IMG/VR virus record: IMGVR_UViG_2711768060_000010 | Length of the DNA stretch: 32,340 nt | Source of the DNA: a virus | Lineage: Duplodnaviria; Heunggongvirae; Uroviricota; Caudoviricetes | Strand: one strand, 5' to 3' | In this document: positions 7,739 to 29,720 of the stretch, in pieces | How positions within the stretch are numbered: the stretch's first letter is position 1 | Layout: each line of letters opens with the position of its first letter | Notes under the pieces: model-generated | The model's database searches: none | Seen by the model: the letters and a program-made list of their open reading frames with translations, nothing else | Told to the model about the DNA's origin: nothing | Program-made: the position numbers and the translations under genes

Positions 7739-8787
7739 GCTGCACCCTTCACCGTTGTTTCTTCAGTAAAATTCAAATGCAGGTGGCGCGGAATTTCCGG
7801 ATCGCTGTTGATGGCCATCGCCAGGCGGCGCTGAATGGGCAGCACTTCATTCTTTTTGTAGGTGCGCTCAATCTTTTCCGGGTCGCCCAGCCCGGCAGTA
7901 TTCTGCGGAACAATACCTGCAAGCCCGGCCGGAAAGCGGTGCGCGTTCAGAATGTCCTGGGCGCTGATGTTCTTCACGCTCGCAAATTCATCCTTGGCCG
8001 AAATGTCCCCCATCTCAATAAACTTGATCGCGTCACCGTCGCCGCCAGGGATGTTCACCAGGATGGTGGAGAAGTTGCCGATCCCCTTGCTGTCCCGCAG
8101 CTGCCGTTCAATCTCCTCCTCCATTTCGTCCGTCATGCTGGGGTCACGGGTATACAGAATGCCGCCCGTGTGTGCGCCGTTGTGGTAGTAGCGACGGCGA
8201 AAAATAACTGCCTCACTGTTCAGCAGGGCAGAGTGAACGCCGCCGATGTAGTCCGGCAGACCATAGATGTGCTGCTGCGGGTCGTACATCTTGATGAAAA
8301 TGATATCGTCAGGCGGGAACGCCAGCGGCTCGCCTTCCTGTAAAACCACGTAATCCCCTGGCACAGTCTCCGCGTTTTCTCTCTCCTTTCGTCGGCGGAG
8401 GTAAAGCCCCGGCAGCGGCTGAAGCCCGATCACGTCTCCCCAGCCATTACGGATTTTGGCCACAGCGATATCACCAAAGGTCAGGTAATCAAAAACAGCG
8501 GCCTCCAGCTCGTCGAACGTCAGGCCGCCGCCCTGATAGTCCGCCGTCACCATGTTTTTACGGGCGTGGATAATCCCGCCGTGCTGGCCGTTCAGGTTGA
8601 TAAGCTGCGCCAGCGCCAGACGGTCAATCGGCTGGGTGTAGTGGTCGGCGGCGTTGTCGTACCAGATTTCCCGGTAATCGGTTCCGGTAGTCAGTACCGG
8701 TTCTGGTTTGCCAAAGCTGATAATGCTCATTTTTTTGGACTTATCGCCGCGCTGTTCGCGCTTCACAAAACGTTTCTTTTTGCTCAT
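7735..8787 (-). CDS. Portal protein (P2 gpQ-like)
   Basis: 350-aa ORF directly downstream of the terminase large subunit on the same strand; size matches P2 Q (about 344 aa). Confidence 0.85.
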   Translation of the reverse strand: MSKKKRFVKREQRGDKSKKMSIISFGKPEPVLTTGTDYREIWYDNAADHYTQPIDRLALAQLINLNGQHGGIIHARKNMVTADYQGGGLTFDELEAAVFDYLTFGDIAVAKIRNGWGDVIGLQPLPGLYLRRRKERENAETVPGDYVVLQEGEPLAFPPDDIIFIKMYDPQQHIYGLPDYIGGVHSALLNSEAVIFRRRYYHNGAHTGGILYTRDPSMTDEMEEEIERQLRDSKGIGNFSTILVNIPGGDGDAIKFIEMGDISAKDEFASVKNISAQDILNAHRFPAGLAGIVPQNTAGLGDPEKIERTYKKNEVLPIQRRLAMAINSDPEIPRHLHLNFTEETTVKGAA

Positions 8788-10556: not shown

Positions 10557-10728
10557 AGATTTAATTATGCCGTGGTGCTGATGAAAAAACGGCGGGGTTA
10601 ATTCGGGGCTGTTCGGTAATGGCTTATAACCGAACTGTTCAGAATAAAGCGTAATGCGGGGATGTGTTTAATTAGCAATAATCAAATCCACAGCAAGGGA
10701 AACAGTTAATCGACAGAGGGGGAAATAT

Positions 10729-11523: not shown

Positions 11524-11582
11524 TTAACCGCAACGCGAATAAGCAAAACATTTTTATTATCGCTTAATTGCGAGGGAGTCTT

Positions 11583-12605: not shown

Positions 12606-12608
12606 TCA

Positions 12609-13310: not shown

Positions 13311-13369
13311 AGACTACCGCAAGCCAGGCGGGCGCGGTGGAGGGCAGAAACACGATGTGATGCTGCGCC

Positions 13370-13861
13370 GTGGAAACCGGACAGCCCGCCTATTTTTTCG
13401 GGGGAGCCATGTTTAGTGGAAAGCCGCTTGATTATCAGGACGAGCCGCTAAAAAACGAAGGATTCTGGCCAGACCTGAACCTGAAGGACTTTCAGGCACA
13501 GCGAGCGATCCCGGCTGATGTTGAGGCGGACACCGTTGCCCAGGCGCTGCTGGCGGCTGTGGCGGAGGTGAACGCGGAGCTGGAAAAAGTGGAAGCCAGC
13601 TGGAAGGCAAATGGAGTTCTGAGCGCAGGGGACGCGCCGGGGGCACGGATGGGGGAATTAAACGCCCTCTGTGCGCAGTACATGAAGGCGGTTTTTGCCA
13701 GGGCAAAAGCTGACCTGTTGGGGGAGTTTGCCACCGTTGGGCGGCGTGACTCTCACCCAGGCCAGGAAAGCACGGAAACCCGCGCCGGATTGCTGGCAGA
13801 GGCGTCAGTTGTTATCCGCCGCATGAAGGGGCTGAAAAGGGCAACGGTAAAGAAGGTATGA
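13370..13861 (+). CDS. Head completion/stabilization protein (P2 gpL-like)
   Basis: 163-aa ORF (GTG start; alternative ATG at 13409); FWPDL...VNAEL region parallels P2 L (FFPDI...TNAEL). Confidence 0.65.
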   Translation: METGQPAYFFGGAMFSGKPLDYQDEPLKNEGFWPDLNLKDFQAQRAIPADVEADTVAQALLAAVAEVNAELEKVEASWKANGVLSAGDAPGARMGELNALCAQYMKAVFARAKADLLGEFATVGRRDSHPGQESTETRAGLLAEASVVIRRMKGLKRATVKKV

Positions 13862-14364
13862 GCCAGACACAGCTTGAAAACCTGACGGCGTTCTTTACCA
13901 GCAACGTGCCAGCCCGTGCGATGCAGTCGTTTGTTAGCGTAGTGGATGAAATGGAGTTCGTACCGGCTTCAAAGGATATGGGACTGGGGCAGTACCGCCA
14001 GGCGGTGATCCGCTATGACGCGGTACTGAGCTGGGAGCGTTTCCCGTATCGCCTGTGTCCGCCGCAACTGCTTATGTCGCTGATGGCTGCCTGGCTCGAT
14101 GAGGCAGACCGGGAATTACTGGACGAAATCGGGGTAACTGAGGCCGATCCGCAGTGGGATGTGTCGGTGGCCGATGAAGAAACCGCCGATATTGTCCTGA
14201 CGGTTCCCATGGCGGAAGAGCTGGTGATCCGTGAGGACGAAAAGGGATTAATTCCCTGGCAGGGCAAGCGCTGGTCACTGGTTGAGCCGGAAATCTGGAC
14301 GGCGCTGACCGCAACGATTTACGGCGTGGATGAGTCCGGTGCGCCTGTGGGCGATGCGTCGTGA
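13858..14364 (+). CDS. Putative tail completion protein (position of P2 gpR)
   Basis: 168-aa ORF with start overlapping the gpL stop; assignment by size and position only. Confidence 0.4.
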   Translation: MSQTQLENLTAFFTSNVPARAMQSFVSVVDEMEFVPASKDMGLGQYRQAVIRYDAVLSWERFPYRLCPPQLLMSLMAAWLDEADRELLDEIGVTEADPQWDVSVADEETADIVLTVPMAEELVIREDEKGLIPWQGKRWSLVEPEIWTALTATIYGVDESGAPVGDAS

Positions 14365-15068
14365 TTGCCGGAGGGGAGCTTAACAAGCGCCAGCTGGCGG
14401 AGCTGAAAAAGGCGCTGGCCAGCATGGAGCTGCCGCCCAAAAAACGGCAGCGGCTGCTGTGGCGAATGGCGAAATATGGCGTTATTGCCGCCGCCAAACG
14501 CAACGTGCGGAATCAGGAAACACCGGACGGGGAAGGCTGGGAAGGTCGCAAAACAAAGCGCAAAGGGAAGATGCTGCGCAACATGCCGAAACTGCTGCAT
14601 ATCCGGGAAATGCCTGAGATTCAGGCCGTGCGGATTTACTTGCAGGGTGGCGGCTACCGGAACGGGGAAACGCCTGTACCCGCTGGCACGGTGGGCTATT
14701 CGCAGCAAAACGGCATGCGCGTCCGGGTGAGTCGTGCAAGCCAGCCAGGGAAAGCACAGCCAGGCAAGATGGCCACCGCTGCGCAGGGAAAAAAACTGCG
14801 TGCGCTGGGCTACCGGGTGCGCCGGGGGAAGCGCTGGAAAAAGCCCACTATCCGGGAAATAACCAGCGAAATGCCATACGCACAGGCGGGGTTGCTTATC
14901 CGGAAGTTAAGCGGCAAGGCCGTCAAAACAAGCTGGACTATCGATCTTCCTTCCCGCGTATTTCTGGGAATGGGTGATGAGGACTTTAACAAGGCGCTGG
15001 CACGCCAGCTTCAGGCCATCGGCTTTGGCTGGGATGTGAATGCGCAGGATATCAGGGGGAGAACATGA
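14361..15068 (+). CDS. Putative virion morphogenesis/tail completion protein (gpS-like)
   Basis: 235-aa strongly basic ORF, GTGA overlap with upstream gene; resembles the phage virion morphogenesis family by composition and position; true start uncertain. Confidence 0.4.
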   Translation: MIAGGELNKRQLAELKKALASMELPPKKRQRLLWRMAKYGVIAAAKRNVRNQETPDGEGWEGRKTKRKGKMLRNMPKLLHIREMPEIQAVRIYLQGGGYRNGETPVPAGTVGYSQQNGMRVRVSRASQPGKAQPGKMATAAQGKKLRALGYRVRRGKRWKKPTIREITSEMPYAQAGLLIRKLSGKAVKTSWTIDLPSRVFLGMGDEDFNKALARQLQAIGFGWDVNAQDIRGRT

Positions 15069-16192
15069 CCTGGCCAAATGTGACCGTTAACCAGGTAAAC
15101 CAGCTACTGGGCGAAACCAATGAGGTGGAACGCGCGGTGCTGTTTATCGGTACGGGAACCAAAAATACAGGCAAGACCCTGGCTGTGAACACACAGAGCG
15201 ATTTTGACGCGCTTCTGGGTGAGGCTGACAGCCAGTTAAAAAGTGACGTGCTGGCTGCGGTGTCGAATGCTGGCCAGAACTGGTGGGGGTTCGTCCATGT
15301 GCTGGCTGCTGACAGCGAGCCGGAGGCATGGGTTAAAGCGGTGCTGGCTGCGCAGGTGTCGTGCTCGGTTGAAGGCGTGGTGCTGAGCAATGACATTTCC
15401 ACAAAGGCGGAAATTAACCAGGCTATTACGTTACGTGCGGATTTGATCGCGAAGTATGGCCGCTGGGTATGGTTCATTCTGGCCACGCAGGGAATGCAGG
15501 ATGAAGAGGGGCAGGCGGATTACCTTGTGCGTATGTCCACCCTTCAGGCTGGCATTGCGGAAAAGGCGGTGCAGCTGGTTCCCCGTCTGTGGGGAAATGA
15601 ACCGGGTGTGCTGGCTGGTCGCCTGTGTAGCCGCGCCGTCACTATCGCAGACAGTCCAGCGCGTGTGAAAACCGGGGCGCTGCTGAGTCTGGGCAGTGAT
15701 GAACTGCCGAAAGATGGCACTGGCGCGGTGCTGGAACTGGCAACGCTTCAGGCACTGGAGGCGCAGCGCTTCAGCGTGCCGATGTGGTATCCGGACTATG
15801 ACGGGTTCTACTGGGCAGATGGCCGCACGCTGGATGTAGAGGGCGGCGATTACCAGTCTGTTGAAACGCTGCGCGTGGCGGACAAAGCAGCCCGCCGTGT
15901 GCGTCTGCTGGCCATCGGCAAAATTGCGGATCGTTCACTGAACAGCACGCCGGGCAGTATCGCCGCGCACCAGACGCTGTTTGCGCGTCCGCTGCGGGAA
16001 ATGTCTACCGCCGCCAGTATCAATGGCGTGTCGTTCCCTGGCGAAGTGAAACCGCCGCAGGATGGTGATGTGTCCATTGTGTGGAAAAGCAAAAAAGCCG
16101 TGGAAATTTACATTGTGGTGCGCACGTGGGAAGTGCCTCTGCAAATCACGATCAGCCTGTTACTGGATGCCAGCCTGGAGGCCGCAGCATGA
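15065..16192 (+). CDS. Putative contractile tail sheath protein
   Basis: 375-aa ORF with GGGGGA RBS, immediately upstream of and coupled (ATGA) to a tube-sized ORF; inferred from size and order (P2 FI is 396 aa). Confidence 0.5.
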   Translation: MTWPNVTVNQVNQLLGETNEVERAVLFIGTGTKNTGKTLAVNTQSDFDALLGEADSQLKSDVLAAVSNAGQNWWGFVHVLAADSEPEAWVKAVLAAQVSCSVEGVVLSNDISTKAEINQAITLRADLIAKYGRWVWFILATQGMQDEEGQADYLVRMSTLQAGIAEKAVQLVPRLWGNEPGVLAGRLCSRAVTIADSPARVKTGALLSLGSDELPKDGTGAVLELATLQALEAQRFSVPMWYPDYDGFYWADGRTLDVEGGDYQSVETLRVADKAARRVRLLAIGKIADRSLNSTPGSIAAHQTLFARPLREMSTAASINGVSFPGEVKPPQDGDVSIVWKSKKAVEIYIVVRTWEVPLQITISLLLDASLEAAA

Positions 16193-16644
16193 CAAAGCGT
16201 ATTTCCGGTATGTCGTTTGATACCTATCTGGACGGCGATCTGATCCACATCGAAAAAATTTCGCTGGATATCACGGACAACAGCGCCGCCGCGCAGACCC
16301 GTGGAGTGCCGGATGGCCATGTTGATGGTGACGTGGCCGCAGAGGGTGAAATTGAGGTCAGTTCGAAAGTGCTGGCCGTACTGACAGCGAAAGCCCGCGC
16401 GGCGGGTTCGTGGCGCGGTATCGAACCGCTGGACTTTCTCTTCTATGCCAAAGCAGGCAATGAAGAGGTCAAAGTTGAGTCGTTCGGCAATAAATTGCAG
16501 CTGAGTAATCTGCTGGATATCGATCCGAAGGGTGGCGGCGTTGCCACGCACAAAATCAAATATTTTGTGACCAGCCCGAAGTTCGTAAACATCAACGGCG
16601 TGCCGTATCTGGAAGCGGAAGCCACAGAAAACCTGATCGGTTAA
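16189..16644 (+). CDS. Putative tail tube protein (start trimmed to ATG 16189)
   Basis: 151-aa ORF; GGAGG 7 nt upstream of ATG 16189, which overlaps the sheath stop; size and order match a tube protein. Confidence 0.5.
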   Translation: MTKRISGMSFDTYLDGDLIHIEKISLDITDNSAAAQTRGVPDGHVDGDVAAEGEIEVSSKVLAVLTAKARAAGSWRGIEPLDFLFYAKAGNEEVKVESFGNKLQLSNLLDIDPKGGGVATHKIKYFVTSPKFVNINGVPYLEAEATENLIG

Positions 16645-16653
16645 GGGGCAGGG

Positions 16654-16947
16654 ATGCAGGAATATGAAAAGGGGTTCATTGCGCTGATTGTCATGGGGGC
16701 ATTAATTGCCCTGGGCAAGATGCTGAACAGCGATGAGCCGATCACGTTACGTCTGGTTTTGGGGCGCGTTATCGTTGGCAGTGCGTTATCACTGGCGGCA
16801 GGCGTTGCACTCTATTTTGTACCGGACATTCATCCGCTGGCGCTTGCTGGTATCGGTTCGGCGCTGGGTATTCTGGGGCTTAACGGAGTGGAAGCCTGGC
16901 TGCGCAAAAAGGGGATTAGTTTTCTGGGTAAAGGGGTGGGGAAATGA
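16654..16947 (+). CDS. Holin (three predicted transmembrane segments, basic C-terminus)
   Basis: 97-aa ORF with three hydrophobic stretches (IALIVMGALIALG; VLGRVIVGSALSLAAGVALYFV; LALAGIGSALGILGL) and a Lys-rich tail; directly upstream of the endolysin. Confidence 0.55.
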   Translation: MQEYEKGFIALIVMGALIALGKMLNSDEPITLRLVLGRVIVGSALSLAAGVALYFVPDIHPLALAGIGSALGILGLNGVEAWLRKKGISFLGKGVGK

Positions 16948-17285
16948 CTCTGAGCGAAAAGCAGCAGCTGTTTGCCGTGATGGTGGCAGATCTTATTCAC
17001 TGGGCGCAGGAACACGGCTACCGCCTGACATTTGGCGAAGCGTACCGCACACCGGAACAGGCCGCGCTAAATGCCAAAAGTGGCAGCGGTATTTCAAACA
17101 GCCTGCATACGCAGCGCCTGGCCGTGGATTTTAATCTGTTCGTAAATGGGCAGTACAAGACCCGTACGGAAGATTATCTGCCGCTGGGTGAATACTGGGA
17201 GTCGCTGGGCGGTTCGTGGGGTGGGCGCTTCAAATCACGTCCGGACGGCAATCACTTCAGCCTGGAACATAACGGGGTGCGCTGA
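16944..17285 (+). CDS. Endolysin, peptidase M15 family (L-alanyl-D-glutamate or D-Ala-D-Ala peptidase type)
   Basis: 113-aa ORF with zinc-ligand spacing typical of M15 peptidases (SLHTQRLAVDFN ... DGNHFSLEH); sits between holin and spanins. Confidence 0.65.
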   Translation: MTLSEKQQLFAVMVADLIHWAQEHGYRLTFGEAYRTPEQAALNAKSGSGISNSLHTQRLAVDFNLFVNGQYKTRTEDYLPLGEYWESLGGSWGGRFKSRPDGNHFSLEHNGVR

Positions 17286-17653
17286 TGAGCATCCGCCAGT
17301 GGTTGCTGGTTGTGGCAGTGGCGTTTGTGTGGGGCTGGCTGGTCGCGGACTGGCGCAGGGATAGCCTGGAGCTGGCGATCAATACAGCGGCACAGGTTGC
17401 GGGGGATAAATCCCGCAATGCTATGCAGCTGATTGCCCGCGATTCAGCCAGGGGGCTGGAAGATAAGCTGGAGGCGCTGAACAATGGCAGACCGAAGGAA
17501 ATCAGGACTGAAATTATTAAGCCAGTTTTTACTAATGTGTGCGTGTCTGATGAGTTTATCGGGATGTTTAACGCCTCCGTCGAAAACACCGAACGTGTCT
17601 TATCAGGAAAACCTGAAGCGAAAATGCCCAACGGAAAACCTTCCGCGCATTAA
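17285..17653 (+). CDS. i-spanin (Rz-like, N-terminal membrane anchor)
   Basis: 122-aa ORF with N-terminal TM helix (WLLVVAVAFVWGWLVA) and charged periplasmic region; follows the endolysin. Confidence 0.55.
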   Translation: MSIRQWLLVVAVAFVWGWLVADWRRDSLELAINTAAQVAGDKSRNAMQLIARDSARGLEDKLEALNNGRPKEIRTEIIKPVFTNVCVSDEFIGMFNASVENTERVLSGKPEAKMPNGKPSAH

Positions 17654-17789
17654 AGGTAATACCGGGGCGGATGTTGCCGCCCCTGCTATTGAATATCAGA
17701 ATTTATATTCTGTTTGCGCAGCGCGTCACAATGCGCTGATTGATGAAATTGAATTAAGAGAGAAATCAGAAAATGGAAAACCAGATTAA
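17484..17789 (+). CDS. o-spanin (Rz1-like outer-membrane lipoprotein), overlapping the i-spanin gene in the +1 frame
   Basis: Signal peptide ending in lipobox LSGC, Pro-rich mature region; starts inside the i-spanin gene in a different frame and extends past it. Confidence 0.5.
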   Translation: MADRRKSGLKLLSQFLLMCACLMSLSGCLTPPSKTPNVSYQENLKRKCPTENLPRIKGNTGADVAAPAIEYQNLYSVCAARHNALIDEIELREKSENGKPD

Positions 17790-18033
17790 ATTAACCGTGG
17801 GCGGCGTGGATATTACTTTTGAGCCGAACCAGACCGCTTATAACAAATTCATTAACGAAATGGCGATGGATAATAAAGTTGCCCCGGCGCATAACTATCT
17901 GACGCGCATTGTGGCGGCGGAAACAAAAGACGCACTGGCGGAAATTCTAAAACGTCCGGGCGCTGCGCTTCAGCTTGCGGGAAAGGTAAATGAGATTTAT
18001 GCGCCTGAACTGGAAATTGAAGTAAAAAACTAA
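17773..18033 (+). CDS. Tail assembly chaperone (G/E-like), upstream part of a frameshifted pair
   Basis: 86-aa ORF immediately upstream of the tape measure gene; ends at a slippery heptamer followed by a stop. Confidence 0.6.
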   Translation: MENQIKLTVGGVDITFEPNQTAYNKFINEMAMDNKVAPAHNYLTRIVAAETKDALAEILKRPGAALQLAGKVNEIYAPELEIEVKN

Positions 18034-18224
18034 CAAAGCGAGTCCGGGCAATTGAAAACAACGGACTCGACCAGTATTTAATTTTACGCCGCCACTATTT
18101 ACCCCACGGGGATGATTCAGTTGATGATATTGCAGCTGCAATATGGCTGGACAATCGCCACTGGGATAATACGCGCATTGCTATTGCAAACGGAATAAAC
18201 ACTGCTTTTAAAGGCGCTGAATGA
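18024..18224 (+). other. Programmed -1 ribosomal frameshift site (A_AAA_AAC, 18024-18030) and -1-frame extension of the tail chaperone (GT/E'-like product)
   Basis: Hand translation: zero frame reads GTA AAA AAC TAA; after a -1 slip the frame is open for 64 codons (LTKRVRAIENNGLDQYLILRRHYLPHGDDSVDDIAAAIWLDNRHWDNTRIAIANGINTAFKGAE) and stops at TGA 18222-18224, overlapping the tape-measure ATG 18221-18223. Confidence 0.6.
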
Positions 18225-20287
18225 AACAGTTAGATTTTACATTAAGCCTGATCGATAAATTGTCACGCCCGTTAAAACAGGCGCAGGGCAGCGTGACCGG
18301 CTTTGCGGAAAAATCAAACGCAGCGTTTAAGCAGATTGGCGGCGGGGCGCTGGCGCTGGTCGGAACGGGGATGGCCATTAAAAGCGCTTTGTCTCCGGCC
18401 ATTGAGATGTATGACGCGCTGAACGATGCGGCCGCAAAAGGCATCGACAACACTGCGCTTAAGACGGTGCAGCGCGATGCGCTGACGTTCAGCATGACCT
18501 ACGGTGCCAGCGCACTGGATTTTGTTAAGTCCACTGAGGAGATTAACACCGCCATTGCCGGGCTGACCGGAACGGAACTGCCGAAAGTGACCAAAACCGC
18601 CAATACCCTGGCGTTTGCCCTCAAAGCCACCTCCGCGGATACGGCGGAGTTTATGGGGCAAATGTTCGGCAACTTCTCGTCAGATGCTGAGCGGCTGGGC
18701 AAAGTCCAGTTTGCGGAACAGCTGGCGGGCAAGATGGTTTTCATGCGCAAAACCTTTGGCACCGAAATGGCCACTATTAAAGACCTGATGGAAGGCGCGC
18801 GCGGCGTGGGTACAAATTACGGCGTAGGGCTTGATGAACAGCTGACCGTGCTGGGGCAACTGAACCGCACGCTGGGTTCTGAAGCCAGTAGTGCCTATGA
18901 AGGCTTTATGACCGGGGCGATTGAAGGCGGCAAAAAGCTGGGGCTGTCCTTCACGGACTCCACCGGGAAAATGCTGTCCATGCCTGAAATGCTGATCAAG
19001 CTGCAGGGCAAATATGGCAAGAGCCTGGAAGGGAACCTGAAAGCACAGGCGGAGCTGGATGAAGCCTTTGGTGACAGTTCGGCAGTGGTTAAGCATCTTT
19101 ATGGCAACGTGGCGCTGCTGCAGAGAAACATCACCGAACTGGGCGGCGCTGACGGGCTGAAGCGTACACAGGAAATGGCCAGCAAGATGGTGAAGCCGTG
19201 GGATCGGTTCGTGGCTATTCTGACGGCGATTAAAACCGTGATTGGGCTGACGCTGATCCCGGTACTGTATCCGGTGCTGAATCGCCTGGCGGATATGGGG
19301 CAGACGTTTGCACGCTGGATGCAGCTGTTTCCCAATATCGCGCGTGTGGTGGGTTATGCAGCGATGGCACTGCTTAGCTTTGCCGCCGTGGGTGCAGTGG
19401 TCAACATCCTGATGGGTGTTTCTGCTTTCGTTATGGGTGGCCTGCGCGGGATCTGGGTGGCGCTGGCCTCAGTGACGCGCATTTACACCGCCACTATCTG
19501 GCTGGCACAGAAAGCCGTTGTTGTCTGGAATATCACCCTGGGTGCGTTGCGAGGCATCCTGCTGGCGGTGCGTATGTCGGCAATTATGGCCGGGGTGGGC
19601 ATCAATCTTATGAGCCTGCCGATTCTGCTGGTTATCGGGGCGATTGCTGCGCTGGCCGCTGGTTGTTACCTGCTGATCCGTAACTGGGAAGCGATTAAAA
19701 CCGCTGTCATGAATACGGAAGCCTTTGCAGCAGCTGCAGCAGTGGTTAAGTGGCTGGCGGGTATTTTTGCCAGCGCCTGGCAATACATCAGCGATGGATG
19801 GAATGCCTTTACTGCATTGCTGGCCGGGTTCTCTCCTGCGCAGGCGCTTAGGGGAATGGCCACGGGCATCATGACGATGTTTGATAACGTCTGGCAGACC
19901 ATCAAAGACAGTTTCCTTAAATCATGGAACTGGATTGTAGAGAAGCTAAATAAAATACCGGGCGTGAATATAGGGCTGGCAGAAACTTCAGCGCAAGCAG
20001 CTGCGGTTCCGGTGCCTGAATTAAAACAGGTTGCTAAAGCAGAGGGGGCAGCATCATCCCTGCCACAAAATATTAACGCCAGTAATCCGCAGCCGCTTCT
20101 GACTTCAAATACTCTTTCCACAGGTGGTGAGTTAAAGGGCATTGAAAAGGGCGGTCTTTCAAAAACAATTAACAGCAATTCTAAATCTGTTGTTGATAAC
20201 AGTAAAAAAATTGAAAACGTTAATATTTATCCAAAAGAAATGTTAACGCCTGGCCAGTTAATGGAGTATCAGGAGTTGGGCGCATGA
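18221..20287 (+). CDS. Tail tape measure protein
   Basis: 688-aa ORF, Ala/Gly-rich with a central hydrophobic block; follows the chaperone/frameshift pair, the canonical position for a tape measure gene. Confidence 0.85.
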   Translation: MKQLDFTLSLIDKLSRPLKQAQGSVTGFAEKSNAAFKQIGGGALALVGTGMAIKSALSPAIEMYDALNDAAAKGIDNTALKTVQRDALTFSMTYGASALDFVKSTEEINTAIAGLTGTELPKVTKTANTLAFALKATSADTAEFMGQMFGNFSSDAERLGKVQFAEQLAGKMVFMRKTFGTEMATIKDLMEGARGVGTNYGVGLDEQLTVLGQLNRTLGSEASSAYEGFMTGAIEGGKKLGLSFTDSTGKMLSMPEMLIKLQGKYGKSLEGNLKAQAELDEAFGDSSAVVKHLYGNVALLQRNITELGGADGLKRTQEMASKMVKPWDRFVAILTAIKTVIGLTLIPVLYPVLNRLADMGQTFARWMQLFPNIARVVGYAAMALLSFAAVGAVVNILMGVSAFVMGGLRGIWVALASVTRIYTATIWLAQKAVVVWNITLGALRGILLAVRMSAIMAGVGINLMSLPILLVIGAIAALAAGCYLLIRNWEAIKTAVMNTEAFAAAAAVVKWLAGIFASAWQYISDGWNAFTALLAGFSPAQALRGMATGIMTMFDNVWQTIKDSFLKSWNWIVEKLNKIPGVNIGLAETSAQAAAVPVPELKQVAKAEGAASSLPQNINASNPQPLLTSNTLSTGGELKGIEKGGLSKTINSNSKSVVDNSKKIENVNIYPKEMLTPGQLMEYQELGA

Positions 20288-20613
20288 GTGAAATTCTGTA
20301 TATCGACTTATTTATCCAAAATGGTGACTTTGTTCTTAATACAGGTAATGAACCTGAATTATGCAACAACCGTAAAAGTATCGGGCAGGATATTATTCAT
20401 TCCATCATTGAAAGCGGTCTGGCCACACAGTTAATTGGTGAGCGCAGTCCAACGTTAAGGGCTGATATTTTCACCCGCCTGGAATTACTGATTGAAGATG
20501 ATGAACGCATTGTGCCGGGAACCGTGGAAATCAGCGAGGAAAGCCAGAAGCGTTTATGGATTACAGCCAGCACATATGATTTTGGCGGAATATCTGCCCA
20601 GGTGGATTTATGA
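20284..20613 (+). CDS. Putative baseplate wedge protein (gp25/W-like)
   Basis: 109-aa ORF between tape measure and the J-like gene; assignment by size and position. Confidence 0.4.
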   Translation: MSEILYIDLFIQNGDFVLNTGNEPELCNNRKSIGQDIIHSIIESGLATQLIGERSPTLRADIFTRLELLIEDDERIVPGTVEISEESQKRLWITASTYDFGGISAQVDL

Positions 20614-21794
20614 CGGAAAAGCCAGACGTAGATTTTGAGGCCGTAGTAAAGGCCAGCGGCATGCCCGTAACTGAAGCAGAAGTGCGGGAGCGCTTCAACG
20701 CGATAGTAAGCGATGAAGGCATTATCACCAACACTTCCAGAATGTCGCCTTTCTGGCGGTTAATCACGGCGATTGTTACCGCGCCAGTGATGTGGCTGAA
20801 GGATGCTCTGGTGTCCACGGTGCTGGCCAATATGTTTGTGGCCACTGCCAGCGGAAATATGCTGCGCCTTCTGGCGTGGGCGGTAAACATCACGCCTAAA
20901 CCTGCCAGCGCTGCCGAGGGGGTGATCCGCTTCTTCAAGGAGGATGCAAAAGCCGTGGTGACGGTGAAGGCCGGGACAATCGTACAGACGGAGCGGATTA
21001 ACGGAACGGTGTACGAGCTGGCCACCACACAGGATGTGGTGATCGCCTCCGGCGCGGCCAGCGCACTTCTTCCGGTTAAGGCCAGGGGTACAGGCAGTGC
21101 CTTCAACCTTGCGCCAGGGTATTACCGCATTCTGCCTGTTGCTGTCAGCGGTATCAGCCATGTGGCCAGCGAAGAGGACTGGCTGATCACTCCGGGCGCG
21201 GATGAGGAAAGTGATGATGAACTGCGTGAACGCTCCCGGAATCAGTTCAACCTGGTCGGCAACTATCACACCGATGCGGTTTACCGTTCGATGATCGCAA
21301 GCGTTGCCGGGTTGAGTATCGAACGGATTTTCTTTGAGCACGAAGCCCCCCGTGGGCCAGGTACGGCCAACGCTTATCTGCTTCTGGATAGTGGGGTTGC
21401 CTCCGCGCCGTTCGTGGATGCCGTGAACAATTACATCAATACGCAAGGCCATCACGGACATGGCGATGATATGCAGTGTTATCCCATGCCGGAAACGCTT
21501 CACGATTTGAGTGTGACCGTATACGTCAACAATCTGAGCAATTTGAGCGAAGACGAGACGAAAGCCCTGCGGGAAGGCGTGGAAAACCTGATCCGCTGCG
21601 CCTTCCGGGAAAATGCTGATTTTGACGTGCGCAAGACCTGGCCATATTCGCGGTTTTCGTTCTCCCAGCTGGGGCGCGAAATCCATAAAAATTTTGCACT
21701 GGCTGAATCTCTGGCTTTTTCGCTGGCGGATATCTCCAGTGAACTGAGCGTGCCGCGCCTGAAGTCCCTGGTGGTGAGAATCGAAAATGAATGA
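20610..21794 (+). CDS. Baseplate assembly protein J-like
   Basis: 394-aa ORF, translationally coupled to neighbours, followed by I-like and tail fibre genes as in P2 (J-I-H-G). Confidence 0.7.
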   Translation: MTEKPDVDFEAVVKASGMPVTEAEVRERFNAIVSDEGIITNTSRMSPFWRLITAIVTAPVMWLKDALVSTVLANMFVATASGNMLRLLAWAVNITPKPASAAEGVIRFFKEDAKAVVTVKAGTIVQTERINGTVYELATTQDVVIASGAASALLPVKARGTGSAFNLAPGYYRILPVAVSGISHVASEEDWLITPGADEESDDELRERSRNQFNLVGNYHTDAVYRSMIASVAGLSIERIFFEHEAPRGPGTANAYLLLDSGVASAPFVDAVNNYINTQGHHGHGDDMQCYPMPETLHDLSVTVYVNNLSNLSEDETKALREGVENLIRCAFRENADFDVRKTWPYSRFSFSQLGREIHKNFALAESLAFSLADISSELSVPRLKSLVVRIENE

Positions 21795-22374
21795 ATTTAT
21801 GAAAAAACTGGCCGGGCTGGCGCTTCCCTCCTGGATGCGTAAAGGCGAGCCGGAAAAGTTACTTAAAGCCGCGCAGCGCTTCTGGGCTGAGGTTTACGGG
21901 TGGATTACCTGGCCAATGAATCAGTTTGATCCGCTGACGTGCACGCCCGCATTGCTGAACCTGCTTGCCTATGACCGGGACATTACCCGCTTTGACGGGG
22001 AGCCGCTGAGCCTGTTCCGTAAGCGCGTGGCCTACGCCTTTATCAATGCCCGTGATGCTGGTTCGGTTGAGGGCTTTATCAACATATTTGATCGCCTGGG
22101 CATTGGCTATGTGGAACTACTTGAGCGCCAGCCGGGGATTGACTGGGATGTAATTCTGGTGCGCGTCACTGACAGCCAGATAGCCGATAACACGCAGCTG
22201 CTGATCCAGATTATCCGGCAATACGGGCGAACATGCCGCCGCTATCAGTTTGAAGTCATTACATCAGAAAAGCTGGCCATCAGGGCTGGCTGGGATCAGG
22301 GGGAATACGTTGTGTATCCGGCAACGCTGGCAGGAACGGAAACCCAGAGCGCCACGTTTAGCGCGAGTTTATAA
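21787..22374 (+). CDS. Tail protein I-like (baseplate)
   Basis: 195-aa ORF between the J-like gene and the tail fibre gene. Confidence 0.6.
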   Translation: MNEFMKKLAGLALPSWMRKGEPEKLLKAAQRFWAEVYGWITWPMNQFDPLTCTPALLNLLAYDRDITRFDGEPLSLFRKRVAYAFINARDAGSVEGFINIFDRLGIGYVELLERQPGIDWDVILVRVTDSQIADNTQLLIQIIRQYGRTCRRYQFEVITSEKLAIRAGWDQGEYVVYPATLAGTETQSATFSASL

Positions 22375-22383
22375 GGAGTCTTT

Positions 22384-24270
22384 ATGTCACAGACAGCTAT
22401 TACCCTGGCGTTTGAGCGATGGAAAGCGCAGCAGGGCGCGACGGGTGAGCCGGTATTACTTGATGAATTTGTTTTTGCCAACGTTCCGGGGCTGAATCCA
22501 GATACCCCCATTGACCGTAACGAGGTGTTACCGCCTGCGGCGCAAATTGTTCACCGTCAGCCCGTCACCCGCAGCGGCGTGGTGAATGAAAACAGCGTGG
22601 TGTTTTCTGCCGTTCTTGGCGCGGATGTGGGGGATTTTGTTTTCAACTGGATCGGGTTGCTGAACAAAGCCAGCGGTACGCTGGCCATGATTGTTCATGC
22701 ACCGGAACAGCAGAAGCTGAAAACCGCAGAAGGGCAGCAGGGTAACGTTTTAACCCGCTCTTTCCTGATGGAGTACAACGGCGCTCAGACAGAAACCGCG
22801 ATCACGACTCCGGCAGAAACCTGGCAGATTGACTTCACTGCGCGTATGACTGGAATGGATGAACGCCAGCGCGTGGAAAATCTGGACATTTTTGGTTCTG
22901 CGGCTTTTTTTGGTGACGGGTATCTGGTCGCTAAATCGGGTAGTCAGTTCTTTGTGACCAAAGGCACCGGATATGTGGGCGGGTTGCGTGCGTCGCTTGA
23001 GGCAAACCAGAATATTGCCGTTGCGGCGAAGCCAGTAAAGGTCTGGCTGGACGTTTGCTGGACAGGTTCACTAACCAGCGTATGGGGCGTGCAGACCAAA
23101 ATCACGCTGGCCACAGACCTGGCTAATTATCTGCAAAACGGGGTTCAACATTACGTATTTGCACTGGCCAGCATTGACGCAAACGGGAACATAACAGACC
23201 TGCGCCCGAAAGGGACGCTTAACGAGCAGGCCGCCAGTGACGCGCTGAAAAAACACGAACAGTCACGCAATCACCCGGATGCGACAACTGGCGCTAAAGG
23301 ATTTGTTCAGCTGAGTAGCGCAACTGACAGCACCAGTGAGGCGCTGGCGGCAACGCCAAAAGCGCTAAAAATCGCGATGGATAACGCCAATGCCCGACTG
23401 GCGAAAGACCGAAATGGCGCGGATATCCCGAACCCGGCTTTGTTCATCCAGAATATCGGATTGCAGCAAACGGTTGATCTGGCGAAAGGGGCAGTACCTT
23501 CCACGCGAAGGGTTAATGGAAAGGCGCTGTCAGGAGATATAGAGATTTTTCCCTCTGATATTTACGCCGGATCGGTAGCCCTGGGCGCTGGGGTGGATTT
23601 AAACGCAATTACCACACCGGGCCTCTACTATCAGCCGCAAAACGTGAACGCGCAAGGCGGGAAGAACTACCCCGAAGTAAACGCCGGATCGCTTGAAGTC
23701 CTTAAACATGCGGGTGTCACGCAGATTTACCGGATTTATAACAACTCAAAATGTTACTGGCGGGCGCTCTATGGCAACAACTGGTCAGCCTGGGCGAAAG
23801 TGTACGATAACAATTTCCGCCCGACTGCGGCGGAAGTTGGAGCACTCCCCAGTAGCGGGACGGCGGTTGCCGCCGTGAAACTGGCGACACCCCGCTTAAT
23901 TAACGGCATCGCCTTTGATGGGACGCAGAATATTGGTATCAGTGCGACGGCGGTCGGGGCTTACTCAAAAGCCGAAAGCGATGCCAAATACGGCGCAAAA
24001 AACACAATCGGTAAAGCGGCTAACGGATGGTTTAAAGATACGACCACAGGATTGATTATTCAGTGGGGATTTACCAACCAGACAGGCGGTTATCAAAATA
24101 TTACGTTCCCTATCGCATTCCCAAATGCGTGTCGAAATATTCAGGTTACGCCCTATACCGCCAACGTGGCCGGAACGCTCGAATGTTCGGTATCGCAATA
24201 TTCCAATACGACAGCAAGGCTTAACGCAAACCAGAACTATCCGTTGTTCTGGCAGGCAACAGGATATTAA
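22384..24270 (+). CDS. Tail fibre protein (gpH-like, receptor binding)
   Basis: 628-aa ORF directly upstream of a tail fibre assembly chaperone; AGGAG RBS. Confidence 0.75.
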   Translation: MSQTAITLAFERWKAQQGATGEPVLLDEFVFANVPGLNPDTPIDRNEVLPPAAQIVHRQPVTRSGVVNENSVVFSAVLGADVGDFVFNWIGLLNKASGTLAMIVHAPEQQKLKTAEGQQGNVLTRSFLMEYNGAQTETAITTPAETWQIDFTARMTGMDERQRVENLDIFGSAAFFGDGYLVAKSGSQFFVTKGTGYVGGLRASLEANQNIAVAAKPVKVWLDVCWTGSLTSVWGVQTKITLATDLANYLQNGVQHYVFALASIDANGNITDLRPKGTLNEQAASDALKKHEQSRNHPDATTGAKGFVQLSSATDSTSEALAATPKALKIAMDNANARLAKDRNGADIPNPALFIQNIGLQQTVDLAKGAVPSTRRVNGKALSGDIEIFPSDIYAGSVALGAGVDLNAITTPGLYYQPQNVNAQGGKNYPEVNAGSLEVLKHAGVTQIYRIYNNSKCYWRALYGNNWSAWAKVYDNNFRPTAAEVGALPSSGTAVAAVKLATPRLINGIAFDGTQNIGISATAVGAYSKAESDAKYGAKNTIGKAANGWFKDTTTGLIIQWGFTNQTGGYQNITFPIAFPNACRNIQVTPYTANVAGTLECSVSQYSNTTARLNANQNYPLFWQATGY

Positions 24271-24272
24271 AA

Positions 24273-24710
24273 ATGGACGAGCAATATTATTACAGTCCCT
24301 CGCGAAACGGTTTTTTCTTCGTTTCGCTGAAGTCTGACTATGAAGAATCAGAACGTGGCTGGCCTTCAGATGCCGTGGAGATATCGGAGCGCTGGTATCA
24401 ATACCTGATTGGCGGAAGTTCAACGCGAGTTATTACGGCAAATAAATACGGCCAGCCAGTGCTGGCTGATCCTCCTCAGGCCACGGAAGAGGAGTTAATT
24501 GCGCAGGCTGAAAACCAGAAAGCAGCGTTGATGCTTTCGGCAAGCAACGCTATTGCACCCCTGCAGGATGCGGTGGATCTGGGCGAAGCGACGGAAGATG
24601 AGCAAAAACGGCTGCTGAGCTGGAGAAAATACCGCGTGCTGCTGAGCCGTATTAATCCAGAAGATGCGCCAGAAATTGCGTGGCCGGAGGAGGTTGAAGA
24701 TGTGGCGTGA
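24273..24710 (+). CDS. Tail fibre assembly protein (Tfa/gpG family)
   Basis: C-terminal region AENQKAALMLSASNAIAPLQDAVDLGEATEDEQKRLLSWRKYRVLLSRINPEDAPEIAWPE closely parallels lambda Tfa ([58 protein letters not shown]) from memory. Confidence 0.85.
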   Translation: MDEQYYYSPSRNGFFFVSLKSDYEESERGWPSDAVEISERWYQYLIGGSSTRVITANKYGQPVLADPPQATEEELIAQAENQKAALMLSASNAIAPLQDAVDLGEATEDEQKRLLSWRKYRVLLSRINPEDAPEIAWPEEVEDVA

Positions 24711-25425
24711 AGCGCAGCTGGCGTTTACTGATTCATTGTCTGCCCTGAACTGTTCCATCGTTCCCGCGCATCCGTGGGTTTATGGGCTGGGACAGCAGAC
24801 TGATAACGGCGCGTATCTCAGCCCGGTTAACGCCGTACGCTACCTGGCTGAAAAAATGGCCGGGATGGGGGGTAAAGCTGATGTGGTGATCATGATGGTG
24901 ACTGGCCAGACGCATGAAACCTTTATGAAAAGTCTGGGCGATCTGGTTGATGTATTTCCGGCACCTGCTTTTACGCAGGTTAAGCGCCTGGCGCAGTCTG
25001 CTGCAGAACTGGCCATTGAACGAATGCAGATCCCTGCCAAAGTTTCTGCCGGGTTGCCCGCTTCCGTTCCGTTATCCGTACCGACGAGCAGAACGGCACT
25101 GGCAGCGGCGGCAATCAGCCAGGCGCAGAAGGCGGCAGGGGAAACGGTTGATATCAGTAGCCTTAAACAAAAGCTGGGTGAGTTTACGCAGCTGCGCGAA
25201 CAGCTGTTAGGTGAGGTGGCCAGCGGGCTGAGTGACCTGAAGGGTAAAAGCGCCCGCGCCTGGTTTTTCACTGCCAGTGATGATATCGGCACTACGTTAC
25301 TGGAGCTGGTAAAGGGAATACCGCAGCAGTCCGCCGTGTATACCGCAGCCATGATGCTGGTTGGTGATAATCTTGATGGTATTAAAGGAATGATACATGA
25401 CCTCGATCCCGACGCTGGCGCTTAA
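24700..25425 (+). CDS. Putative tail/baseplate structural protein (function unassigned)
   Basis: ATG 24700 with AGGAGG RBS, overlapping the Tfa stop; phage-like GC and tight packing with flanking structural genes. Confidence 0.35.
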   Translation: MWREAQLAFTDSLSALNCSIVPAHPWVYGLGQQTDNGAYLSPVNAVRYLAEKMAGMGGKADVVIMMVTGQTHETFMKSLGDLVDVFPAPAFTQVKRLAQSAAELAIERMQIPAKVSAGLPASVPLSVPTSRTALAAAAISQAQKAAGETVDISSLKQKLGEFTQLREQLLGEVASGLSDLKGKSARAWFFTASDDIGTTLLELVKGIPQQSAVYTAAMMLVGDNLDGIKGMIHDLDPDAGA

Positions 25426-25954
25426 CGGCGAAGCCATCCCCCTGAAAAATATGCGCGTGACACCCACGATGCAGTTTCAGGATAAAGACCAGTCTGGCCA
25501 GACAAGTTCCACCGCGAAATCAGAGCAGGGTATAAAGGGCAAAGAGCTGCGAATTTCCGGGGAGGTAGCGTTTAAAAACCCGGAAATCCTGCGCCGTATC
25601 TTTGAGCTGGCCAGCGCTACTGATGCCAGTGGCCAGCGCCAGAAATACCGGGTTGCGCATGATGTCGCGAGGGCGATCAATTTTCGTGAGGCAACTTTTA
25701 CCGGAACGCTGGACGCGCCGCAGCAGGATGGCCGCATGTCCTGGCTGGTCACGTTCACCCTGGCCGAGCACATCAGCGTACAGGAAAAACGAGAGGCCAG
25801 GGCAAGCGGGAAAACGGCCGCAACGAAACAGACTGCCGGTAATGGAACCGCAGGCGGAGCCGGGCAGGGTGGCCAGACAGCTGGCGAAGATAGTGAAAAA
25901 ATGACGTGGTTTGAAAGCAAGGTGCTCAAACCCGTGAATGATGCGCTGGGATAA
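25397..25954 (+). CDS. Putative tail structural protein (function unassigned)
   Basis: 185-aa ORF overlapping the previous gene end; Gly/Ala/Thr-rich C-terminal tail. Confidence 0.35.
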   Translation: MTSIPTLALNGEAIPLKNMRVTPTMQFQDKDQSGQTSSTAKSEQGIKGKELRISGEVAFKNPEILRRIFELASATDASGQRQKYRVAHDVARAINFREATFTGTLDAPQQDGRMSWLVTFTLAEHISVQEKREARASGKTAATKQTAGNGTAGGAGQGGQTAGEDSEKMTWFESKVLKPVNDALG

Positions 25955-25956
25955 GC

Positions 25957-27633
25957 ATGAAACCAATAAAACGCCTTTACCTTTCAACGGACGAAATTCA
26001 CCTGGCGGATGCCAGTCTGGTGCTGGAATTTAACAACTGCGGCCGGGGATTCATCACTGCCGGAACCACAGAGGACTATACCGGGAAAATGGTGCGTCTC
26101 GATGTGGGCTATCCTGATCTGGTGCTGCGCTGGTTCACTGGTTACGTGGAGCGATCCCAGCCAGCTGAAAACGGCTTTCAGCGCCTGTTTGTGCGAGAGC
26201 TGGTAGGTATCTTTGAGCGTATGTGGCCATGTTCATTTCAGCATCCGACGCTGCGAAGTGTGGCCAGCTGGTTAACGGAGCACAGCGGCTTAACTTTCAG
26301 TGTGCCGGATGCAGAATATTCAGACCGTCCGATCCCGCACTTCACGCATAGCGGCACGGGATACCAGCTGCTGGATAACCTGGGCAAGGCGTTTGGTATT
26401 ACAGATTACGTCTGGTATCAGCTACCGGATGGTGGGGTTTATACCGGGGGCGCAGAAAAGGCACTGTTTGCCGGGAGGCCGATCGATATTCCGGCAGAAT
26501 TCAGCCAGGGCGCAGCGGGTGGTAACACAATGACCGTTCCGCTGATCCAGAGCCTGCGGCCGGGCGTAGAGATGAACGGGGAGCGTGTGACGAAGGTTCA
26601 TCTGACCAATGACACAATGGCCATCACATGGACACCGCGCAATCGCGTCACTGGCCAGCCCCTGCAAAAAACACCATTACAACGGCAGATTGAAAGCCAT
26701 TACCCGGAGCTGGCATCGGGGCTACACGTGCCGAAATTCGCCAGGGTGGTAGCGCCCAGTGAAGCCGTGAAAAGCGGCAATTTCTCCGATCCGTTCAGGC
26801 CGCGCTATGCCGTGGATGTGCAGCTGCTGGACGCGGACGGGAATCCGGATCAGAACACGCCAGTTTACAGCGCCGTTCCGCTGCCAGTTCCAATGGCCGG
26901 TAATGATTCGGGGATGTTCCAGTTTCCGCCAGAAGGAACAATGGTCGAGGTGGGCTTTACGGGCGGCAGGCCGGATAAACCCTTTATCCGCCAGACCGTG
27001 CCAGACGGAACCAGCCTGCCGGATATTCAGCCTGGCGAGCAGCTGCAGCAGCAACGGGCGGAAGTATCGCAACGGGTAACGCAGGCAGGAGACTGGATAA
27101 GGCAGACAGACCAGACCATTAGTGAGACTTCAATGGCACGGGTTATCAGGGCTGACAGTGAGAACAGGGAGCTGGTTAGTCGTGAAACAACGATTAAGGC
27201 TGCAGACAATCTGACGGTGGTCGGAACGGCCAGACTTATGGCCGGGGCTATTCAGCACATCAGCACAGGCGATTACAGCCAGGCAGTTAAAAACCGGGTG
27301 GCCAGCATTGGCGGCAACGATACAACGGAGATTACCGGGGAAAAAAGCTTAACGACTGGCAAAGACCTGATCGAGCAGATTGGCCAGATTCGCAAAAGTG
27401 TGGCGGCAGTAAAGCAGGAAATCATTGCACCCGTGGTCTGGATAGGGTCGCAGAGCATCAACGTGGCACAACTGATGCTGGACACGCTGGACGTGGTTAA
27501 GCAGCTGGCAGAGCAGACCGCCAGCCATACGCACAGCAACACGGGCACCCCACAGAATGCGGGGGAGATTAAGAGCACAGGAAGCCAGGCGGACAGCCTC
27601 AGTAAGAAATATTCACCCGTAATCAGTAAGTAA
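25957..27633 (+). CDS. Putative baseplate hub plus central spike protein (gpD/gpV-like fusion, VgrG-like)
   Basis: 558-aa ORF, last gene of the tail operon; internal motif PPEGTMVEVGFTGGRPDKPFI resembles the spike OB-fold signature of P2 gpV (PSVGEQVLILAVGGELDTAFVLPGI); followed by a strong terminator. Confidence 0.45.
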   Translation: MKPIKRLYLSTDEIHLADASLVLEFNNCGRGFITAGTTEDYTGKMVRLDVGYPDLVLRWFTGYVERSQPAENGFQRLFVRELVGIFERMWPCSFQHPTLRSVASWLTEHSGLTFSVPDAEYSDRPIPHFTHSGTGYQLLDNLGKAFGITDYVWYQLPDGGVYTGGAEKALFAGRPIDIPAEFSQGAAGGNTMTVPLIQSLRPGVEMNGERVTKVHLTNDTMAITWTPRNRVTGQPLQKTPLQRQIESHYPELASGLHVPKFARVVAPSEAVKSGNFSDPFRPRYAVDVQLLDADGNPDQNTPVYSAVPLPVPMAGNDSGMFQFPPEGTMVEVGFTGGRPDKPFIRQTVPDGTSLPDIQPGEQLQQQRAEVSQRVTQAGDWIRQTDQTISETSMARVIRADSENRELVSRETTIKAADNLTVVGTARLMAGAIQHISTGDYSQAVKNRVASIGGNDTTEITGEKSLTTGKDLIEQIGQIRKSVAAVKQEIIAPVVWIGSQSINVAQLMLDTLDVVKQLAEQTASHTHSNTGTPQNAGEIKSTGSQADSLSKKYSPVISK

Positions 27634-27640
27634 CCCCCAC

Positions 27641-27664
27641 AGCCCGCAACCGCGGGCTTTTTTA
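27641..27664 (+). terminator. Rho-independent terminator of the tail operon
   Basis: AGCCCGC aacc GCGGGCT hairpin followed by TTTTTT, 8 nt after the stop codon at 27631-27633. Confidence 0.8.
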
Positions 27665-27670
27665 CGCCCA

Positions 27671-27718: not shown

Positions 27719-28346
27719 TCACCACACGCAATCTGCCGCAGTATGCGCGGCGCTGACAGAATCAAACCCGCCTCAACACCCAAAACAGATCGTGAGCACA
27801 GCGAGCCGCTGAGCGCGTCACAGCCTGACAAAATAAATGTGTCGCAGACAAAAACGGCACTACACCGCACCCGCCTGCGGTTTTTGGATCATAAAAATTT
27901 TTCAGTTTTATTTTTCTGCAAACCAGACCGCCAGACCGCGCCAGCGCTAGCGGCTTTGCGGAAAACCAGAACTGAAAAGATTGAAAAGAATTTCAGTGTT
28001 TTTCACATTTATGGATCTGGAAAGGATCTTGGTAATGATATAAGTGATTGAAAAATAAATTTATTTTAAATTTTGTGTGTGTCGAAAGGATCGTTTTGGC
28101 CTTCCGCTTCGGTCTGTGGGGATGCAGCTGAAGCCAGAGCTGGGGCGGTACAAGGCAAAACAGAGCGGTACATAGAAAACTGAAAAAAACTGCATGCATT
28201 TCATGAAAACCAGCGACTAACAATTGCATCGAAATCTAATTTTAATCTTGGAACTTAAGAAAACTTTTGCCACATTAGTAGTCGCTTTTTAGTTGTGGAT
28301 TTTCTTCCGATGATTACTTGGCAGAGCTTACATTAAGGCATTCGAT

Positions 28347-29465: not shown

Positions 29466-29565
29466 CAAATATGATTGGGCACTATCGCTGTCGCCATTTT
29501 GTCGCCAACTCAATCACCGTTTTATTGCAAGTATTTGAATTTAATGATTTTTATTTTCAGGCAAC

Positions 29566-29608
29566 AAAAAACCCATCAACCTTGAACCGAAATGGCGGGG
29601 TTGATGGG
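29566..29608 (-). terminator. Terminator-like hairpin (minus-strand orientation)
   Basis: CCCATCAACC / GGTTGATGGG 10-bp perfect stem with a 17-nt loop; the A6 run on the plus strand becomes a T-run after the stem on the minus strand; about 110 bp downstream of the ybjL stop. Confidence 0.45.
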
Positions 29609-29720
29609 CTCCACAAAATGGGGACATCAAAGAAAAGCAGTGGCACTAATTAAGACTGATGCCCTGCGGAAAAGTTCTGCGGTTGTGCAAAAAAATTTCA
29701 TTTTCAGGGCAACTTCAGTT

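Follow-up and report, generated by a model that had tools for sequence, protein, structure and literature searches.

An Escherichia coli prophage with the standard HP1-group order of tail and lysis genes

The 32,340-nucleotide (nt) window analysed here (IMG/VR virus record IMGVR_UViG_2711768060_000010) carries a prophage, and we are highly confident that its interval 13858-27633 is the half of an HP1-group Peduoviridae late operon that holds the tail and lysis genes, with a vertically inherited layout. The classification itself is contradicted by nothing that was found. An earlier note on this DNA had read the interval as the product of modular recombination, in which P2/186-type head genes were joined to a tail cassette of non-P2 order, and had regarded that order as out of the ordinary. 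This reading fails because well-characterised phages already show exactly this order. It is shared by HP1 (Haemophilus), K139 (Vibrio), phiO18P (Aeromonas), YenM324 (Yersinia), phi3 (Pseudomonas), ESSI-2 (Cronobacter) and ESSI2_ev015 (Escherichia; hereafter ev015), seven records from seven genera of Peduoviridae in the ICTV taxonomy. In HP1 the order runs orf21, orf22, sheath, tube, hol, lys, Rz, orf26, tape measure, orf28-orf32, orf33, orf34 and orf35, the gene orders of HP1 and K139 being taken from the deposited records. The supposedly non-P2 order is the textbook order of the HP1 group, so that a false lead is removed and no novelty attaches to an architecture that is already published. 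The by-products of the analysis are a conserved A_AAA_AAC site, a fold-based assignment for the HP1_ORF34 family, an att site in rybB, a candidate cos region and a clean ESSI-2-like annotation.

Every gene that the earlier note had named in the interval was recovered on the plus strand, at the coordinates it gave, by PHROG and Pfam searches; its list had omitted R and S, the first two genes. The features of the interval are given below with their expectation values (E) where applicable.

13858-14364 (+), GpR-type tail terminator R; Pfam P2_Phage_GpR, E 1e-25; PHROG 65
14361-15068 (+), GpS-like tail completion protein S; Pfam Phage_tail_S, E 2e-6; PHROG 26
15065-16192 (+), contractile sheath; Pfam DUF2586, E 3e-134; PHROG 907, E 1e-164
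16189-16644 (+), tail tube; Pfam Phage_HP1_Orf24, E 7e-62
16654-16947 (+), holin; Pfam Phage_holin_3_2; hydrophobic stretches 6-26 and 30-57 (Kyte-Doolittle at least 1.6)
16944-17285 (+), M15 zinc peptidase endolysin of 113 amino acids (aa); Peptidase_M15_4; motifs H55-x6-D62 and D101-x2-H104
17285-17653 (+), Rz-like i-spanin; N-terminal transmembrane segment 2-21
17484-17789 (+), o-spanin Rz1; lipobox LSGC at residue 25
17773-18033 (+), tail assembly chaperone; Pfam Phage_TAC_10
18024-18030 (+), slippery heptamer A_AAA_AAC directly before the chaperone stop; gene end ...GTA AAA AAC TAA
18030-18224 (+), extension of the chaperone in the -1 frame; Pfam DUF6890
18221-20287 (+), tape measure; PHROG 28; Pfam PhageMin_Tail
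20284-20613 (+), DUF2590 protein in the W position; Pfam DUF2590
20610-21794 (+), baseplate J; Pfam Baseplate_J
21787-22374 (+), I; Pfam Tail_P2_I
22384-24270 (+), tail fibre H
24273-24710 (+), fibre assembly protein G (Tfa)
24700-25425 (+), HP1-orf33-family protein; PHROG 1677
25397-25954 (+), HP1_ORF34-family baseplate protein; predicted tail-tube fold
25957-27633 (+), putative hub-spike fusion; PHROG 2258, E 3e-267; Pfam Phage_base_V at residues 308-344

Whole-genome and per-gene comparisons, which the earlier note had proposed as a check, showed the prophage to be colinear with ev015, ESSI-2, HP1 and K139 and brought out no head/tail joint. With blastn, ev015 aligned over 4238-13292 at 80.5% identity and then in one alignment over 13307-19971 at 79.3%. 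ESSI-2 gave one alignment over 11553-19971 at 74.7%, which spans N, M, L, R, S, the sheath, tube, lysis and chaperone genes and the tape measure. At the protein level a per-gene tblastn table was compiled, in which non-detection in P2/186 was judged at E<=1e-3; the aa identities below are from tblastn. Colinear tail matches to S, sheath, tube, chaperone, extension, tape measure, DUF2590, J, I, H and orf33-35 were observed over 17524-32157 of HP1 and 18870-32920 of K139. The sheath and tube are 54% and 60% identical to HP1 orf23 and orf24, respectively, and neither has a tblastn match in P2/186. Between HP1 and K139, R was matched in K139 only, yet it belongs to the Pfam GpR family. The Pfam families of the tube and of open reading frame (ORF) 34 carry HP1 names.

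The head genes lie upstream of the interval, as follows, with the identity of each product to its counterparts.

7735-8787 (-), portal Q, which with P forms 7735..10556, divergent from the O operon; HP1 49%, K139 44%, P2 34%, 186 33%
8784-10556 (-), large terminase P, divergent from the O operon; HP1 51%, K139 51%, P2 43%, 186 42%
10729-11523 (+), scaffold O; tied among HP1, K139, P2 and 186 at 34-36%
11583-12605 (+), major capsid N; HP1 33%, K139 49%, P2 25%, 186 27%
12609-13310 (+), small terminase M; HP1 40%, K139 42%, P2 29%, 186 27%
13409-13861 (+), head completion L; HP1 40%, K139 41%, P2 29%, 186 28%

All six capsid genes are present, with Q-P divergent from O-N-M-L. They had been called canonical P2, which is accurate for the order Q-P/O-N-M-L and not for the sequence: the proteins are nearer to HP1/K139 (33-51%) than to P2/186 (25-43%) in five of the six genes, O being tied. 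A recent mosaic, in which recombination in this lineage brought a P2/186-type head module together with a tail cassette of foreign origin that bears lysis genes, would agree with the P2 head order, with tail proteins that have no tblastn match in P2/186 and with the different layouts of those two phages. Such an event is very improbable given the head identities just described, the nucleotide coverage by P2/186 of only 1-2% of the head or tail block (blastn), and the occurrence of the same head-plus-tail combination in seven genera. Single ev015 and ESSI-2 alignments run through the L/R boundary and the lysis cassette with an even level of identity, and the head proteins are nearer to HP1/K139, so that there is no head/tail recombination joint in this lineage.

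What survives of the mosaic claim is module exchange in general, at great depth, and this has already been published. The 'HP1-like viruses' were split from the 'P2-like viruses' as phages with the six capsid genes in P2 order whose other structural genes, mainly those of the tail, are generally without P2 similarity (Lavigne et al. 2009, PMC2771037). The 2023 paper on phage ACA1 assigned all Peduoviridae genera to an HP1 group or a P2 group by their tail proteins, with Seongnamvirus (ESSI-2) in the HP1 group, and concluded from portal and sheath timetrees that, at the separation of the clades, one of them took up a far older tail-module paralogue (PMC10612066). We lean towards such an ancient replacement, in which one subgroup gained a much older paralogous contractile-tail module at the HP1/P2 split and passed it on to the present prophage. 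Besides the published timetrees, it is consistent with tblastn matches to P2/186 for the head proteins (25-43%) but none for the sheath, tube, tape measure, W-like protein, J, I or any of the three terminal proteins, and with R, S, J and I being recognisable only at the level of Pfam families. No tail protein of the prophage had a tblastn match to its P2/186 counterpart among FI, FII, T, U, D, V and W. The same pattern could, however, arise if the tail proteins simply evolved faster. The ancient replacement concerns the origin of the whole HP1 group, and it is compatible with vertical inheritance of the layout within that group instead of competing with it.

The placement of the lysis genes was one difference from P2 raised by the earlier note, and the facts behind it hold. 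The P2/186 records show the lysis genes (Y, K, lysA/B/C) after L/X and before R, with the tail split into two operons, whereas L and R of the prophage overlap by 4 nt with no gene between them. The cassette at 16654-17789, between the tube and tail chaperone genes, comprises a holin, an M15 endolysin and two-component overlapping spanins. It fits the canonical Gram-negative set by all sequence criteria, Rz1 beginning within Rz and ending 136 nt beyond it. The endolysin is indeed an M15 peptidase, unlike that of P2: it carries the Peptidase_M15_4 motifs and had no tblastn match in HP1, K139, P2 or 186, including the endolysins P2 K and 186 P. The slot between tube and chaperone is common to HP1, K139, phiO18P, YenM324, phi3, ESSI-2 and ev015.

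The content of the slot was probably exchanged in place: the slot would be ancestral to the HP1 group, and in the enterobacterial branch its genes would have given way to a holin of the P2-Y family, a small M15 peptidase and the spanins that go with it. The hol/lys genes of HP1, K139, phiO18P and phi3 occupy the same slot, with a lysozyme annotation in phi3 alone, and neither the M15 endolysin nor Rz and Rz1 of the window had a tblastn match in HP1 or K139. The holin is 41-45% identical to P2 Y and 186 orf24, and 85% identical to that of ESSI-2 but only 53% to that of ev015. The M15 enzyme is 81-90% identical in YenM324, ESSI-2 and ev015, and its next relatives, in Pseudomonas, Aeromonas and Vibrio phages of other types, stand at 45-56%. 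The enterobacterial branch has the spanins in common as well, whereas HP1/K139 have different endolysin genes in this slot. Such exchange is routine for phage lysis cassettes. The M15 endolysin probably reflects replacement of lysis genes within a conserved slot, not a new position.

Downstream of the lysis genes, the chaperone shows the features of a programmed -1 frameshift of the lambda G/GT or P2 E/E+E' type, namely a slippery heptamer, an overlapping -1 ORF and a location after the tube gene and before the tape measure gene. Upstream of 18021 the -1 frame is closed; it then stays open to 18224, where it overlaps the start of the tape measure by 4 nt. Both features, the A_AAA_AAC heptamer and an open -1 frame, recur in ev015, ESSI-2, HP1 and K139 (five phages including the window). 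The chaperone and its extension are the predicted HP1-group equivalent of P2 E/E+E'. PGAP annotates a 'DUF6890 family protein' at 18051-18224 (+) as a separate gene with a non-canonical ATT start; a predicted extension of the chaperone by -1 frameshifting explains this segment better.

The end of the interval encodes the baseplate, the fibre and three terminal ORFs. In HP1, orf28 was identified as gpW by HHpred, orf34 tentatively as gpU, and orf35 as a gpD-gpV fusion (PMC10612066 Table S1). The W label of the DUF2590 protein is based on its position, its size and this published HHpred result; a shallow profile comparison with gpW (hhalign) gave a probability of 0.2%. Structure prediction, which the earlier note had suggested for two unassigned ORFs, was informative for one of them. 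The product of 25397-25954 adopts a tail-tube fold in the model, and by this fold the HP1_ORF34 family is predicted to be a tube initiator or 'ripcord', analogous to gpU. For 24700-25425 the AlphaFold2 model had a predicted local distance difference test score (pLDDT) of 39, from 44 homologues that were 64-90% identical. This ORF is 26% and 25% identical to HP1 orf33 and K139 orf37, respectively, and had no Pfam or PDB match, even with a wider family alignment down to 18% identity. The HP1 orf33 family numbers 194 cluster representatives among 1.84 billion proteins, and a homologue was detected at low abundance in ACA1 virions by mass spectrometry (PMC10612066 supplement). The product of 24700-25425 is probably a minor virion or baseplate component. 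That it is a baseplate/hub accessory without counterpart in the P2, T4 and pyocin baseplates, perhaps replacing the missing gpX LysM protein, is a doubtful proposal.

The last gene had been described as hub/spike-like, and the spike half of that description is borne out by the sequence. The protein is homologous to HP1 orf35 over its full length (38%, 100% coverage). A profile of its seven-member family matches VgrG1 (E 0.005) and T4 gp5 (E 0.006) over residues 311-480, and family members match Phage_base_V, Gp5_C and a GpV Apex motif, with H524 and H526 invariant. These matches support a gpV/gp5/VgrG-like spike in the C-terminal half, while the gpD-like (hub) character of the N-terminal half comes from the published HHpred result for HP1 orf35 (PMC10612066). 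Single-sequence PDB searches, which covered the sheath and each of the three terminal ORF products, gave no convincing match.

The fibre is conserved with relatives only in its N-terminal ~50%, and the C-terminus of Tfa is 52% identical to P2 G. A 183-nt segment of the fibre gene at 23296-23478 (+) is 76.5% identical to positions 12814-12996 in gene K of 186, which overlap an annotated Mu-like inversion crossover site (12962-12987). This segment is probably a conserved fibre recombination segment.

The arrangement of the genes suggests how they might be expressed. Nearly all junctions in the stretch that begins with O (10729) and closes with the last tail gene (27633) are overlaps of 1-29 nt or gaps of at most 9 nt, the exceptions being O/N (59 nt) and M/L (98 nt). 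In the tail interval, an uninterrupted block, no gap is larger than 9 nt except at the frameshift extension, and a single terminator stands at the end. No plus-strand promoter-like or terminator-like site was found in the intergenic gaps of the late operon. The regulatory features are as follows.

7415..7738 (-), ogr/Delta-like zinc-finger late activator, by its PGAP name in the source genome; outside the 13858-27633 interval
10611..10635, perfect dyad GTTCGGT-N11-ACCGAAC in the divergent P/O intergenic region; sole exact match in the window
27641..27658 (+), intrinsic terminator at the end of the late operon, AGCCCGC-AACC-GCGGGCT followed by TTTTTT; the only strong terminator

The ogr/Delta-like protein is 87-88% identical to those of ev015/ESSI-2 and 43-59% to those of HP1/K139, and is likely a regulator of the late operons. 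In the P/O spacer, an Ogr-type activator would turn on a divergent pair of late promoters, for which the dyad is a candidate activator site. The rightward late transcript would run for ~17 kb, from O to the terminator after the last tail gene. Its order would approximate that of assembly: capsid; L, R and S; sheath and tube; lysis; chaperone, with its -1 long form, and tape measure; W-like protein, J and I; fibre and its chaperone; and finally the orf33-like protein, tube initiator and hub-spike. The lysis genes would be co-transcribed in the middle of the operon, and this embedding in the late transcript would leave the timing of lysis to the holin. The layout as a whole is of vertical descent within the HP1 group, and no recombination in the present prophage created it.

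Two points weigh against this account. The first is that the transcription model is inferred: the P2 activator motif TGT-N12-ACA occurs in the window at chance frequency (6 found against 6.3 expected), with none in the P/O spacer, and the proposed dyad is a candidate only. The second is that published HHpred results and gene position are the basis both for equating DUF2590 with gpW, for which the shallow profile was negative, and for calling the N-terminal half of the last protein gpD-like.

The closest known systems are ESSI2_ev015, ev129, ev040 and ev239 (Peduoviridae; ev015 is a Quadragintavirus) together with Cronobacter phage ESSI-2 (Seongnamvirus), whose whole genomes are colinear with the prophage. 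Nucleotide identity over most of the prophage is ~80% to ev015 and ~75% to ESSI-2. Both have the same type of lysis cassette (holin, M15 endolysin, overlapping spanins), and the tail proteins are 75-92% identical to those of ev015. The prophage differs from these phages in the C-terminal half of the fibre and the fibre assembly protein, and from ev015 in the holin (53%), in integrase/cI/cox and in right-end cargo, where ev015 has a serine acetyltransferase and the prophage a PIN_12 gene. Int, cI and cox are only 41-46% identical to those of ev015, while Int is 93% identical to that of ev040/ev129 and 86% to those of Klebsiella phages. Shallow mosaicism is confined to the usual hot spots of temperate phages, namely integrase/immunity, lysis content, and the tip of the fibre together with the fibre assembly protein.

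About 23.9 kb of the ~30.3-kb prophage aligns to ev015 at ~79%, which gives a rough intergenomic similarity of ~62% (0.79 coverage x 0.79 identity; not a VIRIDIC value). The ICTV demarcates genera at >=70% nucleotide identity over the full genome length. The similarity to ev015 suggests a separate species and is possibly below the genus line. This E. coli prophage is ordinary: an intact, ESSI-2-like representative of the HP1-group Peduoviridae that is new at most at the species level.

In the subgroup of HP1 (Hpunavirus), K139, phiO18P, F108 and phi3 the order is identical, from Q-P/O-N-M-L through orf28-35, and all tail genes are homologous at 26-60% aa identity. Members share the A_AAA_AAC site and a putative fused hub-spike as last gene, and cos is probably beside the att/int side. 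The endolysin and spanin genes of HP1/K139 differ from those of the prophage, whose holin is of the P2-Y family, as do the hosts and early regions. The lysis slot of K139, phiO18P and phi3 holds an extra small DksA-like zinc-finger gene, and that of phiO18P also a methylase.

P2 (Peduovirus) and 186 (Eganvirus) belong to the same family and share the capsid order and the divergent Q-P with the prophage. They encode nearly the same set of parts (R, S, sheath, tube, frameshifted chaperone, tape measure, J, I, H, G, U-like and D/V), and they are also alike in the Ogr-type activator, 186-type cI/cII immunity, P2-Y-family holin and LysB/LysC-style overlapped spanins. However, they carry their tail genes in two operons, V-W-J-I-H-G and FI-FII-E-T-U-D, which have activator sites of their own, whereas the tail genes of the prophage form one block with sheath and tube first. 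In P2/186, V and D are separate proteins, gpX is present and cos adjoins Q, whereas the prophage has a putative D/V fusion.

The window matches the E. coli LR-51 chromosome (NZ_AP027550.1) at 100% identity, and the prophage of ~30.3 kb lies there between rcdA and ybjL. Its gene set includes int, cI, cox, cII, a dam methylase, a replication endonuclease, the ogr-like activator, the capsid genes and the interval described above. The features of its right end are as follows.

27860..27874, candidate cos region; 15 nt CTACACCGCACCCGC present at both ends of the ESSI-2 record, with the ends of the ev015 record abutting the same place
29563-29576, attR core; the 3' 14 nt of rybB, a direct repeat of the left-junction copy
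29563..29641 (-), rybB small RNA gene; Rfam RybB, 105 bits; regenerated at the right junction

The second copy of the 14-nt att core AACAAAAAACCCAT is at the left junction, just outside the window (L003 8273-8286), and E. coli K-12 has an empty site at this position in rybB. The prophage has inserted cleanly into the 3' end of rybB, with these 14 nt as att core. A defective prophage or tailocin was rejected because the head, tail, lysis, replication, immunity and integration ORFs are all intact and the att sites are clean. In a published survey the rybB hotspot was occupied only by Felsduovirus prophages (PMC10121019); here, unlike in that survey, it is used by an HP1-group prophage. ESSI-2-like coliphages were described in 2020 and noted to be rare in E. 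coli (PMC6969025), and of 5426 complete E. coli genomes, 40 contain the block from sheath to chaperone.

The candidate cos region, between the last tail gene and attR, was located from the ends of the ESSI-2 and ev015 records, which map to 27860-27874. The ev015 RefSeq record appears to retain a Nextera adapter remnant, CTGTCTCTTATACACATCT, near its start.

A PIN_12-domain protein of 372 aa is encoded at 28347-29465 (+) (Pfam, E 8e-32). The gene is considered prophage cargo because it is located between the candidate cos and attR in a stretch of 39.6% G+C. Neither PADLOC nor PHROG gave a match for its product, and PADLOC gave none for five small early ORFs; the gene could be a moron or a defence gene. 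Finally, outside the window between attL and int (L003 ~8600-8990, minus strand) there is a 24-nt tandem repeat of about 9-14 copies, which encodes an unannotated ORF of ~134 aa with about 11 GPGGGxYT octapeptide repeats.

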